From Gammaproteobacteria bacterium (GTDB lineage Bacteria > Pseudomonadota > Gammaproteobacteria > UBA4575), in contig CBDCTA010000018.1 of assembly GCA_965221955.1 (NCBI GenBank), positions 1 to 64,000 on the forward strand: a stretch of DNA of 64,000 nt. Direction: 5' to 3'. The notes under the pieces were generated by a model. The model was not told the origin of the DNA. It did no database searches and saw nothing but the letters and a program-made list of their open reading frames with translations. Of this stretch, positions 2,100 to 46,857 are shown piece after piece. Each line of letters begins with the position of its first letter. The first letter of the stretch is position 1. The position numbers and the translations under genes were made by a program.

Positions 2100-2826
2100 C
2101 TATGCTCCAGTAACTTCAGTTCCTATATTTTCGCCTTGAATAATTTTTGTAAAATCCCCTTGCTTGAATAAATTAAATACTCGTAATGGAATTTTGTTGT
2201 CTCTACATAAGACTAAAGCAGTTGCATCCATAACACCGAGTTTTTGATGTATTGCATCATCAAAATCTATTTTGTCATAACGTTTTGCATTTGGGTTTTT
2301 ATGCGGATCGTCATCATAAACACCATCTACCTTGGTAGCCTTAAGCATAATGTCTGCATTAATTTCTGAGGCGCGCAAACTCGCTGCTGAATCCGTTGTA
2401 AAATAAGGATTACCTGTTCCCGCAGCAAATACCACTACACGACCTTTTTCAAGATGTCTCACTGCGCGTCTACGAATATAATCCTCACAAACCTGATTAA
2501 TTTTTACTGCGGACATTACGCGACAATACACATTCAAATTTTCCAACGCATCTTGCAAGGCTAGACTATTCATTACTGTTGCCAGCATGCCCATATGATC
2601 AGCAGTCACGCGATCCATGCCCGCTTGCGCTAGACCCGCACCACGAAAGATATTACCACCACCAATTACGATCGCGACTTGTACCCCAAGTTGACTCAAC
2701 ATGTGCAATCTCAGCGCCGATGCGTGAAATAACTTCAGGATCAATACCGTAATCATATTGTCCCATCAATGCTTCACCGCTAAGTTTCAGCAAAACTCGT
2801 TTATATTTCAGGCTGTCTTCAGGCAT
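2100..2826 (-). CDS. pyrH: UMP kinase with +1 frameshift near 2700
   Basis: N-terminus [15 protein letters not shown] is in ORF 2653..2850; the remainder ([24 protein letters not shown]) is in ORF 2100..2756. One extra base at GCACATGTTG joins them. Confidence 0.93.
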
Positions 2827-2858
2827 TTCTATATTTTCAACTACTTGCATTTGATATC

Positions 2859-2900: not shown

Positions 2901-3776
2901 TTAATTTTTCATATCATCGATTTGTTTTTGCACCTCATCTGCAAAGTTCTCAGACCTTTTCTCAAGACCTTCACCCACTTCATAGCGAATGAATTTATTA
3001 ACCGATGCATTGGCCCCTTTCAAATACTTTTCAACACTCAAGCTATCATCTTTCACGAATGCTTGTCCTAGCAAAGTATTTTCTTTGAGGAATTTATTAA
3101 CTTTACCCAATACCATTTTTTCAACAATCTCAGGCGGCTTGCCACTTTCATCTGCTTGAGCCTTTGCGATGTCTCGCTCTTTTTCGAGCACATCTTCAGG
3201 CACTTCTTTTTCACTGATACAGATTGGATTCACCGCAGCAATATGCATCGCAACATCTTTACCCACTTCGTCATTGCCAGAATGAGCCACCAACACACCA
3301 ATACGTTTACCATGAGCATAACTTGATACAGCAGCATCTGAATTTAATTTATCAAAACGACGTACTTTAATGTTTTCACCAATCTTGGTGACCAGCTCAA
3401 GTCTTGCTTGTTCAACCGTTTGCCCAGACGGCATGACGGTATCATTTAATTCTTCTACACTGTACATATCACTCTGCAACACCATCTCTGCAAGCTGCTT
3501 TGAAAAGCTTTGAAATTGATCATCTTTAGCCACAAAGTCCGTTTCACAATTCACCTCAATGACTGCAGCCTGTTTGTCATTACTTGCTATGGCTATCGTG
3601 CCTTCTGCAGCAATGCGCCCTGCTTTTTTATCTGCTTTAGCTTGACCAGATTTACGCATCTGCTCAACAGCGGCTTCCATGTCGCCACTACAGTCCGTTA
3701 GCGCTTTTTTACATTCCATCATTCCTGCGCCAGTACGCTCGCGCAGCTCTTTTACCATTGTTGCTGATATTTGCAT
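2901..3776 (-). CDS. tsf: Elongation factor Ts
   Basis: VKELRERTGAGMMECKKAL and EVNCETDFVA motifs. Confidence 0.98.
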   Translation of the reverse strand: MQISATMVKELRERTGAGMMECKKALTDCSGDMEAAVEQMRKSGQAKADKKAGRIAAEGTIAIASNDKQAAVIEVNCETDFVAKDDQFQSFSKQLAEMVLQSDMYSVEELNDTVMPSGQTVEQARLELVTKIGENIKVRRFDKLNSDAAVSSYAHGKRIGVLVAHSGNDEVGKDVAMHIAAVNPICISEKEVPEDVLEKERDIAKAQADESGKPPEIVEKMVLGKVNKFLKENTLLGQAFVKDDSLSVEKYLKGANASVNKFIRYEVGEGLEKRSENFADEVQKQIDDMKN

Positions 3777-3815: not shown

Positions 3816-5072
3816 TTATTCAGTTAACACAGCAGGCAAACTTTTTGCCTCTTTAATCCACGCATCAATAACTGACTCTTCAGGAACACTTGGCGCTAAT
3901 GATTTCTCAGCATTAGTTGCCTGCAGCTTGGTCAATACATCCGCAGCACTTGCTGCTGCAAGATCACCTATGCTGTTATAACCACTTACTTCTAACAGCT
4001 CTGCCTCGTTACCCGCTACACCAGATATACGGAAGAAATCGCCCATCTTCACCCAACGATCTAAAGATTTTGCATTCAGACCAGTAGATTCTGCACATGC
4101 CGCACGCGTTTCTGCTGAAGCGCATTGCTCTAGTAAGTCTTCAACGGAAGAAATACCAAATTTGTTTAAGGCTTCGCCGTATTTAGGTCCAATACCTTCG
4201 ATATCTGTTATCTTAGTACCATCACTTTTCTTACTTTCAGCACTTACTGGCTTCTCAGTAGATTTAGGTGCTGCTTTTTTCTTAACGGTAACTTTTTGCT
4301 TTGGTTTTGCTTTAGTCGTTTGTTGTGCAACTTTTCCAGATTCATCCACTTCAACAAATTCATCTTCATTGCCACCTGCCATAACACGTGCACTTTCTTT
4401 TCCTTCGCTAATCGCATCCGCGATATTCGCTGAATATAGTTTAATTGCTCGAATTGCATCATCATTACCCGGAATCACATAGTCCACACCGTCTGCTTTA
4501 TTATTCGTATCCACAATAGCGACGACAGGAATGCCAAGTTTGTTTGCTTCCTTTACTGCAATGGCTTCGTAACCTACATCAATTACAAATAAAACATCAG
4601 GTAATGAAGACATATTCTTAATGCCGCCTAAACTGCGCTCTAATTTGAATAACTCACGACGTAGTTCAAGCACTTCTTTTTTACTAAGTCTTTCTATTCC
4701 ATCACCACTTACCATTTGCTCAAGATCATGCAAACGTTGAATTGATTTCTTAACCGTATTGAAGTTAGTTAACATGCCTCCTAACCAACGGTGGTTAACA
4801 TAAGGCATGCTACAGCGAATGGCTTCTTCACGTACTGCATCTCGTGCTGAACGTTTTGTTCCTACAAATAAAACCGTGCCGCGATTTGCAGCCATATTGC
4901 CAAGAAAAGTTGCCGCATCCAGAAACATCGGCAAGGTTTTCTCAAGGTTAATAATATGAATTTTGTTACGTTCTCCGAAAATGTAAGGACTCATCTTCGG
5001 GTTCCAATAACGGGTCTGATGACCAAAATGCACGCCAGCCTCTAACATCTGGCGCATGGTGACGCTAGTCAT
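3816..5072 (-). CDS. rpsB: 30S ribosomal protein S2 with Lys/Pro-rich linker and C-terminal DUF4332-like HhH domain
   Basis: S2 core (GVHFGHQT...[15 protein letters not shown]) occupies about aa 1-230, followed by about 190 extra aa including [11 protein letters not shown] and [14 protein letters not shown]. Confidence 0.95.
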
Positions 5073-45171: not shown

Positions 45172-46857
45172 TTATTCAGCCGAACTTTCGTTTTTATCCT
45201 CGATAGACTCTTTCAAAATATCTCCGAGATTCATTGAAGCCGACTCATTACTGCTGTATTCCTGCATGGCTTCAGATTCCTCTTCATAGTCCTTAGCTTT
45301 GATGGATAAGTTTATCGTCCTAGATTTTTTATCTACACCGATAAATTTAGCTTCAACCTGTTCACCCTCTTTCAATACTGTTCTCGCATCTTCAACACGA
45401 TCCCGTGCAATTTCAGAGGCCTTAAGTATACCCTCTACACCCTCTGCTAATACAATAGTTGCTGCTTTTGCGTCCACCTCGCTTACCGTTCCTGTAACGA
45501 TACTGCCTTTAGGATGTTCGGCGAAAAAGCCTGAAAATGGATCTTTCTCCATCTGTTTCACGCCCAAAGAGATACGCTCACGCTCAGCATCTACCGATAA
45601 CACCATAGCACGCAACTCGTCACCCTTCTTATAATTACGAACGGCTTCTTCGCCTGTTTCATTCCAAGAAAGATCAGACAAGTGCACCAAGCCATCGATA
45701 CCCCCATCTAAGCCAACAAATATTCCAAAGTCAGTGATTGATTTAATCGTACCGGTAACTTCACTGCCTTTATCATGGCTGCTGGCAAAGTCATCCCATG
45801 GGTTCGCTTTACATTGTTTCATTCCGAGGGAAATTCGTCGACGCTCTTCATCAATATCCAAGATCATCACTTCGACTTCATCACCTAGGGATACAATTTT
45901 CGCAGGATTTACATTCTTATTGGTCCAGTCCATTTCAGAAACGTGTACCAAGCCCTCAATCCCTTCTTCGATTTCAACAAAACAACCATAATCAGCAATG
46001 TTGGTAACCTTACCGAATATACGAGTACTTTCAGGATAACGACGATTAATATCTCTCCAAGGATCATCATCCAACTGTTTCAAACCAAGTGACACGCGCG
46101 TTTTCTCTTTATCAAACTTCAGTACGCGTACTTCAATTTCATCACCAATTGCTACAATTTCTGATGGATGCTTAACCCGCTTCCATGCCATATCGGTGAT
46201 GTGTAATAAACCATCCACGCCACCTAAATCTAAAAACGCGCCATAATCGGTCAAGTTTTTAACAATACCCTTAACCACTGCACCTTCTTTTAGCGCCTCA
46301 ATAAGCTCTTCGCGTTCTGCACTGTATTCCGATTCAACTACAGCACGACGTGAGACCACAACGTTATTACGTTTGAGATCGATCTTGATGACTTTGAATT
46401 CTAATTCTTTGCCTTCGAGATATGAGGTATCGCGTACAGGACGTACATCGACTAAAGATCCTGGCAAGAAAGCACGTAGATCACCAAGCTCTACTGTAAA
46501 TCCACCTTTAACTTTGCCTGTAATGGTGCCAGTAATGGTTTCACCTGACTCATGAACCGCTTCTAATTCAGTCCATGCTTTAGCACGGCGTGCTTTTTCA
46601 CGCGAAAGTTTTGTTTCACCATAACCATCTTCAAGCATGTCTAAAGCAACTTCAACGGAGTCACCTACCTCAACTTCTAACACACCATCAGTAACCTTAA
46701 ACTGATCAATGGGAATGATGCCTTCAGACTTCAAACCAGCATAAACGATTACGGCATCTTTATTGATATCAACGACAGTACCGTTGATGATGGTACCCGG
46801 CTGGGTATTTAGATTAGATACGCTCTCTTCAAAGAGCTCTGCAAAACTTTCACTCAT
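45172..46857 (-). CDS. rpsA: 30S ribosomal protein S1
   Basis: [12 protein letters not shown] and six S1 repeats ([26 protein letters not shown]). Confidence 0.98.

Follow-up and report, generated by a model that had tools for sequence, protein, structure and literature searches.

A ribosomal protein S2 with a tethered DUF4332 double helix-hairpin-helix domain in a clade of uncultured gammaproteobacteria

Introduction

As a rule, bacterial ribosomal protein S2 consists of one domain of about 240 residues and anchors S1 beside the mRNA exit. Here we describe an exception, encoded by the rpsB gene in a stretch of 64,000 nucleotides from a member of the gammaproteobacterial lineage UBA4575 (GenBank assembly GCA_965221955.1, contig CBDCTA010000018.1, positions 1 to 64,000; hereafter the window). 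The predicted protein has 418 amino acids (aa), in which a complete S2 core is followed by a disordered tether and a full-length DUF4332 domain, a pair of helix-hairpin-helix (HhH) units. The fusion is real, and its added domain is under purifying selection. The module probably acts as a binding head mounted on a leash near that side of the 30S subunit where S1, the mRNA exit and NusA lie, with either nucleic acid or protein as its ligand.

In what follows, we lay out the architecture of the fused protein, its recurrence in related genomes, its history and its fold. We then weigh what the module may do, in the light of DUF4332 and related units on other ribosomal proteins and elsewhere in the same genome.

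Architecture of the fused protein

The rpsB gene occupies window positions 3816..5072 on the minus strand, as do all parts of it given below by position. It is a single frame of 418 codons and a TAA stop, with no internal stop and no separate start, as the initial annotation had read it. The product matches the bacterial S2 family TIGR01011 (rpsB_bact) along the full length of the family, at 334 bits against a cut-off of 76.3 and over profile positions 2-224 of 225. The S2 core itself (aa 9-224, 4401..5048) covers the whole of PF00318 (profile 1-216 of 216, E 5.6e-95, 317 bits against 26.1). Next comes the usual acidic S2 C-terminal motif (aa 234-243, 4344..4373), which contains EDEFVEVDE and has residues invariant in 38 fused homologues. 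Alignments to solved gammaproteobacterial S2 chains stop here, at query residue 241-243; these chains have 239-246 aa, in line with the typical length of about 240 aa that had been assumed for the comparison. The initial annotation (range 3816-4390, equal to aa 228-418 plus the stop codon) had counted an acidic patch, a linker and the tail as added material. Linker and tail hold up, but the acidic patch is the ordinary S2 C-terminus, so the added part of RpsB is approximately aa 244-418.

The first section of this addition is a predicted disordered tether (aa 244-290, 4203..4343), rich in Lys, Pro and Ala and about 45 residues long. It is marked by low model confidence and contains a conserved basic motif (aa 256-266, 4275-4307), in which K258, Q259, K264, K265 and K266 are invariant among the 38 fused homologues. 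S2 tails without HhH units have a basic motif of this kind as well. The DUF4332 domain follows at aa 292-412 (3837..4199) and spans profile positions 1-122 of 122 of PF14229 (E 3.1e-28, 98.8 bits against a cut-off of 23.2 in Pfam; 101.8 bits in the genome search). The tail had been proposed to be a DUF4332-type double HhH domain, and this match establishes the assignment; the linker and tail motifs quoted in that proposal are present in RpsB as written. Pfam also matches HHH_5 at aa 288-341 (E 1.1e-10). On this match and on fold matches, the N-terminal HhH/SAM-like sub-domain is placed at aa 286-347 (4032..4217) and includes the invariant hairpin IEGIGPK. The C-terminal sub-domain is placed by fold matches at aa 348-415 (3828..4031) and is absent from the 'half' forms of some relatives.

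Recurrence and conservation of the fusion

A search of 41 related genomes found the full fusion in 13. The match reaches residue 414-418, stop-free, in 11 of 15 genomes of the same genus (the window's own genome included), and it reaches the same end in 2 of 10 genomes of the family's other genera. In six others (three of the same genus and three from elsewhere) it ends at about residue 343-347, and one same-genus genome, 61% complete, yielded no S2 match. A word-based search with the tail in a collection of 5.8 billion proteins returned 64 matches, 58 of which carry PF00318 and PF14229 together. Where the source gives a name, it is mostly '30S ribosomal protein S2' of gammaproteobacterial metagenome-assembled genomes (MAGs). 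In a collection of species-representative genomes, an S2 core lies directly upstream of the tail at 5 of 43 loci, and four of these five have S2 sequences identical to genomes already counted. The bearers of the fusion are MAGs with public labels such as 'uncultured Thiotrichales bacterium' and 'Gammaproteobacteria bacterium'. Independent S2-DUF4332 fusions were sought in 1.84 billion representative proteins, where the tail aligned in one (P0065) of the best 150 matches listed; ten of the 150 were checked with Pfam, and fusions with a very divergent S2 core would rank below these 150.

An assembly or frameshift error could in principle have joined rpsB to a separate downstream DUF4332 gene. 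Such a slip was worth excluding because pyrH, on the same contig, is split by an apparent one-base insertion, and indel errors are therefore possible in this assembly. Contigs of four public sequencing runs from two studies show no indel or stop over rpsB, including the linker stop that the initial annotation had named as grounds for two genes, though positions 4281-4320 are bridged by none of them. These are low-depth contigs, and two of the runs (X1 and X2) leave 4242-4329 uncovered and may be the window's source sample. However, the same unbroken frame is found in the 13 genomes and the 58 protein clusters, which come from several sources, differences in tether length between relatives are multiples of three bases, and tsf begins 39 bases past the rpsB stop codon, as in a normal operon. 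Conservation across genomes excludes the slip, and we consider an artefact vanishingly improbable.

The DUF4332 tail is also under purifying selection. Among the 13 full-length genes, the median pairwise ratio of nonsynonymous to synonymous substitution rates (dN/dS) is lowest in the core (0.030), intermediate in DUF4332 (0.075, with 0.079 and 0.092 in its two sub-domains) and highest in the tether (0.158). These are rough values, taken from the 62 (core), 71 (tether) and 48 (DUF4332) of 78 pairs with usable dS, which is itself near saturation.

Evolutionary history of the tail

In a tree of S2 cores (31 rows), the HhH-bearing S2 proteins fall in one clade (support 100/98) inside the family. 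Of the members of this clade, 13 are full forms, 6 are half forms and 2 lack the tail. One of the latter, from a small-genome relative of 1.7 Mb (L064, G023:C1:508-2599), has an S2 that stops at 246 aa; the match read on through an in-frame TAG, as if a stop codon had cut the tail off. The other has a 393-aa low-complexity tail. Sister genera and seven same-class outgroups carry only tails rich in Lys, Ala and Glu. A stretch of 65 alignment columns between '...EKS(I/L)E.W' and the last helix is missing from the half forms of the six relatives, which match DUF4332 profile positions 1-54 above the cut-off. Given this gap and the first-half match, they appear to be deletion derivatives of the full form, arising in one or more events; the tree leaves the branching within the clade open.

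The tail domains tell a similar story. A tree of 71 DUF4332 domains (built without duplicates, a single weak locus and the seven matches of under 100 residues) places the 13 S2 tails in one clade with support of 100/100, on a stem of 1.2 substitutions per site. Since all tails form one clade, the fusion arose once within one family. The S2 tails nest in neither paralogue group of that family, and the window's tail lies outside the clades of its genome's own paralogues. The start of the tail domain coincides exactly with the N-terminus of stand-alone DUF4332 proteins, which is what capture of a whole gene would produce. By these trees and alignments, there was a single capture of the module: it came from a stand-alone DUF4332-type gene and joined S2 in the common ancestor of one clade of uncultured marine gammaproteobacteria.

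After the capture, the tail diverged fast, losing about seven basic residues and becoming acidic, and has since been kept by purifying selection. The S2 tails have a net charge of -6 to -10 (-9 in the window) and 11-14 Lys+Arg. In soluble stand-alone DUF4332 proteins from other genomes, the net charge lies between -4 and +13 and Lys+Arg number 13-27, or about seven basic residues more. One stand-alone form is an acidic exception, the membrane-anchored paralogue of the window's own genome, at -7. Copies fused to S1 have -3 to -4 and a copy fused to L20 has +2. Basic motifs that are conserved elsewhere in the family (KKGRK, RNR..NL and LVR) are replaced in the S2 tails. In hairpin 1 (IEGIGPK), E292, G293, I294 and G295 are invariant across 48 sequences.

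Predicted fold of the tail

Modelled on its own from 48 diverse sequences with AF2, the tail comes out as eight helices with a predicted local distance difference test (pLDDT) score of 95.0 and a predicted template-modelling score of 0.88. It is predicted with high confidence to consist of two packed HhH/SAM-like sub-domains of five helices each. In the AlphaFold model of the full-length protein, aa 224-283 have pLDDT below 50 and the tail 89-96; the S2 core is only moderately confident in that model because the alignment contained close homologues only. The two sub-domains show no detectable sequence repeat when compared with each other by BLASTP (E 2.0).

Structure searches matched the halves rather than the whole. 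With Foldseek, no PDB entry matches the tail at E <= 1e-3, the best being the Pol theta helicase domain at 3.3e-2. An exhaustive VIA structure search matched each half of the tail model separately. Model residues 1-67 resemble the Rad51/RadA N-terminal domain, the thumb of Y-family polymerases, the C-terminal domain of the RNA polymerase (RNAP) alpha subunit (alpha-CTD) and BAF (Z 5.7-8.1). Model residues 63-135 resemble the HhH domain of the Pol theta helicase (Z 9.0), NusA AR2 (Z 7.7) and NusA AR1 (Z 7.0), with further matches to DisA, UvrC and a Listeria protein of the Cdd1 family. The NusA structures (2jzb_B, Z 7.7; 1u9l_B, Z 7.0) cover one sub-domain each, and Z below 8 may mean no more than a common helical arrangement. 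We take these matches as no more than agreement with the HhH assignment made by Pfam. The whole two-sub-domain arrangement had no solved counterpart in the PDB searches, and we do not claim a new fold from that.

Proposed function

The initial annotation had proposed a nucleic-acid-binding module that might affect the recruitment of mRNA or the coupling of transcription to translation. S2 lies on the solvent face of the 30S body, at the site of S1 docking and of the contact between NusA and the ribosome in coupled complexes. According to PMC4288201, S2 provides the docking site of S1, and the native contact is reproduced by an S2-S1NTD chimera. In E. coli TTC-B, according to the bioRxiv preprint 10.1101/2020.03.01.972380, NusA KH1 contacts S2 and S5, and NusA AR2 holds the alpha-CTD. 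A tether of about 45 residues at the S2 C-terminus, together with the position of S2, therefore means that the module could reach the mRNA-exit and S1 side as well as the side facing RNAP. The tether would display the HhH module as a mobile head that sweeps these surfaces. Hairpin 1 may then make weak, sequence-independent contacts with nucleic-acid backbones, for which mRNA leader structure, rRNA or DNA near the translating ribosome are candidate targets. Template would thereby be held at a higher local concentration near the ribosome. We give weak backbone contact through the conserved hairpin, taken jointly with the architecture described above, about an even chance of being right.

Several observations weigh against this backbone-contact model. 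The S2 tails are net acidic, which weakens a simple electrostatic model of nucleic-acid binding; their acidity and the replaced basic motifs argue against strong generic binding. The fold matches, with Z of 7-9, concern each half of the model only and fall in a range where a shared helical arrangement alone can score. Because DUF4332 is also found on membrane anchors, PAS domains and redox proteins, the partner need not be ribosomal. The role of the tail would be dispensable, as six relatives have half the module and two have none. Finally, a Pfam scan of 72 neighbouring open reading frames (ORFs) at 38 stand-alone DUF4332 loci revealed no translation pattern; DUF937 was the commonest neighbour (6 of the 72) and LepA occurred once.

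Since the module is acidic, protein binding in the manner of the NusA AR domains is the main rival. The double HhH would here be a protein-protein adaptor akin to NusA AR1/AR2, linking the 30S subunit to RNAP, NusA or another factor. The AR repeats likewise have HhH-type folds, and their ligands are proteins such as the RNAP alpha-CTD and not nucleic acid. We think this unlikely, if a serious contender, and attach the same low expectation to the adaptor taken together with its consequence, a physical coupling of transcription and translation or the recruitment of a factor. The net charge of -6 to -10 and the loss of the basic motifs of stand-alone forms speak for an adaptor, as do the resemblance of the C-terminal sub-domain to NusA AR2 (Z 7.7, root-mean-square deviation 3.1 over 66 aligned residues) and AR1 and that of the N-terminal sub-domain to the RNAP alpha-CTD (Z 5.7-6.1). 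The contacts of KH1 with S2 and of AR2 with the alpha-CTD in TTC-B also speak for it, and the long stem branch after the fusion (1.2 substitutions per site) fits a change of ligand. On the other hand, the Z scores are in a range common for helical domains, hairpin 1 retains the canonical GIGPK of DNA-binding HhH motifs, and the NusA ORF of this genome is of normal length (505 aa), so nothing has obviously been replaced. NusA AR1/AR2 and the alpha-CTD share several traits with the tail: they are small and acidic, have a helical HhH-type fold (structural resemblance at Z 5.7-7.7), and hang on flexible linkers where transcription meets translation. They differ in that each match involves one sub-domain and in having no sequence-family relation to it (RpsB has no Pfam RNA_pol_A_CTD match).

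DUF4332 and HhH units on other ribosomal proteins

For the DUF4332 family as a whole, nucleic-acid binding is presumed. Stand-alone DUF4332 proteins (PF14229; annotated as COG3743-type 'predicted flap endonuclease-1-like') share the full-length domain with the RpsB tail at 33-45% identity and have the same invariant hairpin and helices. They are about 131-136 aa long and near neutral to basic, whereas the S2 copy is acidic and on a long branch. At Bacteroidota-type loci (L025, L029, L035, L036, L038, L042, L043, L050 and similar), an ORF of about 147-159 aa often precedes the stand-alone gene on the same strand. Full-text literature searches found no relevant paper on DUF4332 or COG3743.

The initial annotation regarded DUF4332 as usually stand-alone, which is only part of the picture. 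Among the matches listed by a profile search in longer proteins, a hand count gives at least five clusters of S1-DUF4332 proteins (761-778 aa), in which six S1 domains precede the DUF4332 at the C-terminus (three Pfam-confirmed); an L20 fusion was listed as well. Among 120 matches listed in a second set, we counted by hand at least 18 L20-DUF4332 fusions (four Pfam-confirmed), at least two clusters of L21-DUF4332 and at least one of archaeal L13e-DUF4332; six of the L20, L21 and L13e fusions were Pfam-confirmed in a follow-up. Public-metagenome examples, in the order S1, L20, L21 and archaeal L13e, are P0219, P0221, P0222, P0224 and P0243; P0239, P0285 and others; P0321 and P0325; and P0344. 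Both sets of matches also hold many fusions to membrane anchors, PAS domains and redox modules, and by these associations DUF4332 is a promiscuous C-terminal module.

The S1, L20, L21 and L13e fusions share the layout of RpsB in the window: a ribosomal protein, a low-complexity linker and a full-length DUF4332 at the C-terminus. In the S1 fusions the host is a direct neighbour of S2 on the 30S subunit (PMC4288201). They differ in their host proteins and, for L20, L21 and L13e, in the subunit concerned; moreover, their DUF4332 keeps the basic motifs and has a net charge of -4 to +2, unlike the RpsB tail. For the S1 fusions, the Atlas offers a tentative lead to Bacteroidota, at low scores of 0.84 and 0.76. 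The recurrence of fusions to ribosomal proteins suggests that the job of the DUF4332 family may be ribosome-linked in general.

A related architecture is already curated. NF008966 (PRK12311), '30S ribosomal protein S2', whose older CDD title was presumably 'S2/unknown domain fusion protein', has an S2 core joined by a low-complexity linker to an HhH-like unit at the C-terminus, which ends in W-x-x-x-A-K-x-L. RpsB of the window aligns from aa 3 to 343 with profile positions 5-325 of 334, that is, through its first sub-domain, and scores 313 bits, below the membership cut-off of 526. Members have a single unit and 327-353 aa in total, as against the complete two-sub-domain DUF4332 here. The tails of six members are mildly acidic too (-1 to -5). 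The one near-member that was scanned, P0105, gave no Pfam match to DUF4332 or HHH_5 at E 0.1. The cut-off is exceeded in 13 of 201 sampled Pseudomonadota genomes, all outside the class of the window; such S2 proteins of another proteobacterial class are found at loci L101-L106 (genomes G094, G086, G204, G126, G182 and G047). With these single-unit tails in another class and DUF4332 tails here, S2 has gained HhH-type units at least twice. The initial annotation had named an already widespread and characterised fusion as a ground against its reading. As far as our searches reach, the literature holds no study of HhH-type fusions of S2, S1, L20, L21 or L13e, and nothing relevant on L32e with HhH, but the related single-unit S2 is already in NF008966. 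Judged by these profiles, the architecture as a kind is thus present in curated databases, and the two-sub-domain S2 appears to be a new variant. The 'sunset domain' S2 family NF051451 is a different matter, with 273 bits against 710 and only the core aligned (profile 1-247 of 382).

In comparisons with PDB sequences, the tail gave weak matches only, the best to L32e of Haloarcula marismortui (E 0.0035). There, query residues 8-62 align with chain residues 10-56, and the likeness consists in an HhH motif outside the ribosomal-protein core. L32e differs in being archaeal, in bearing the motif on an N-terminal extension and in having a single motif matched at a weak score. A broader idea would join these cases: DUF4332 and related HhH units may be an unrecognised, recurrent class of ribosome-surface appendages, captured in separate events by S2 (twice), S1, L20, L21 and archaeal L13e, with an echo in haloarchaeal L32e. 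Stand-alone proteins would then be free ribosome-associated factors, and the modules would tether ribosomes to nascent mRNA, to DNA at the site of transcription, or to RNAP/NusA. We hold this idea as a doubtful one.

The same survey bears on the opposite possibility, in which a DUF4332 gene, either a neighbour or one brought in by transposition, became fused to the highly expressed rpsB and was tolerated as a largely neutral passenger, acting as the free protein would and with no ribosome-specific role. The readiness of DUF4332 to fuse with many unrelated partners would fit such an origin, and so would the loss of the tail in two genomes of the clade and its halving in six. Yet both sub-domains are under purifying selection, the divergence of the tail is marked and clade-specific, and independent fusions have occurred repeatedly, involving five ribosomal proteins and, in a second class, S2 again. 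A neutral passenger is distinctly improbable in our judgement.

S2 proteins carry other additions as well. P0071 (469 aa) has a globular C-terminal tail without family assignment, and P0204 (339 aa) has a C2H2-like zinc-finger motif at its very end. Many S2 proteins of the same class (L063, L065-L074) have long low-complexity tails rich in Lys, Ala, Glu and Pro, for 275-412 aa in total. These often contain a K-K-V-T-V-K-K-K-like motif, which the tether of fused S2 proteins has conserved as well. Additions of further modules seem to be easily tolerated at the S2 C-terminus.

Paralogues and genomic context

Within its own genome, the only match covering the S2 core is the rpsB gene described here; the other two matches are DUF4332 paralogues. 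The first is soluble, about 131 aa long and starts MANHKIEAVEGIGPKY (L011, G000:C22:178410-178811). The second, an ORF of 214 aa, has a transmembrane helix at its N-terminus and a coiled linker (L013, G000:C29:217509-217910). In addition, two long membrane-anchored coiled-coil proteins are encoded on G000:C29 (L098:332-2215, minus strand of the locus, 627 aa; L099:290-1777, minus strand of the locus, 495 aa). They end in two and one single HhH-like units, respectively, of the type seen on NF008966 S2.

This set of proteins would offer partners for an alternative in which the tail pairs with another DUF4332 or HhH unit (a second S2 tail, or a soluble or membrane-bound paralogue), and so clusters ribosomes as in hibernation or holds them at the membrane or nucleoid. 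Of the 11 same-genus genomes that have the full tail, 10 match a soluble-type paralogue, against none of the three that have the half tail, which fits pairing; these are kin genomes, so the counts are not independent and the co-occurrence may reflect phylogeny alone. Also against it, acidity is common to the S2 tail and the membrane-anchored DUF4332 paralogue. A complex prediction with two copies of the tail returned 'no answer' (score 0.00 against a mark of 0.42) and is evidence neither way. Bridging of this kind strikes us as very unlikely, and we return to the surroundings of rpsB with weak backbone contact as the preferred reading.

The gene sits in an operon of the usual kind, with leader and tsf in place, as had been noted at the outset. 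Upstream is the Rfam t44 element (RF00127; 5093..5179, minus strand; 71.7 bits against a gathering score of 44, E 3e-15, model 1-95 of 95), which we take to be the S2-responsive rpsB leader. The ribosome-binding site is AGGAG, and tsf, encoding EF-Ts, follows at 2901..3776 on the minus strand (TIGR00116, 334.5 bits against a cut-off of 104). Upstream of rpsB, map and glnD lie on the opposite strand. The G+C fraction of the tail (0.39-0.46) is the same as that of its flanks.

The rpsA gene for S1 (45298..46851, minus strand) is full length and without an HhH tail (TIGR00717 profile 1-516 of 516, 712 bits against a cut-off of 577), and we reject replacement of S1 by the tail. Replacement of the NusA repeats is likewise rejected, given the normal length of the nusA ORF.

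Further along the contig, pyrH (UMP kinase) is read in two overlapping minus-strand frames (window 2653-2850 and 2100-2756), both of which match TIGR02075. The break, near 2697-2700, consists of one extra base relative to all 11 aligned loci of relatives. It is either an error of assembly or a genuine frameshift, which would then affect an essential gene.

Significance

The lineage that bears this S2 is known mainly from metagenome-assembled genomes in public records. A conserved folded domain on a 45-residue leash at S2 would change what the small subunit can touch. Members of the same domain family stand at the C-termini of at least five ribosomal proteins, and of S2 in two proteobacterial classes, which makes the module a testable ribosome-linked candidate. 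The finding would gain in weight should a shared ribosome-linked function lie behind the repeated attachment of this family to ribosomal proteins. Should the module turn out inert, it would still show with what ease the S2 C-terminus takes on additions. If DUF4332 units are indeed ribosome appendages, some lineages would have a built-in, factor-independent way of coupling or localising translation.

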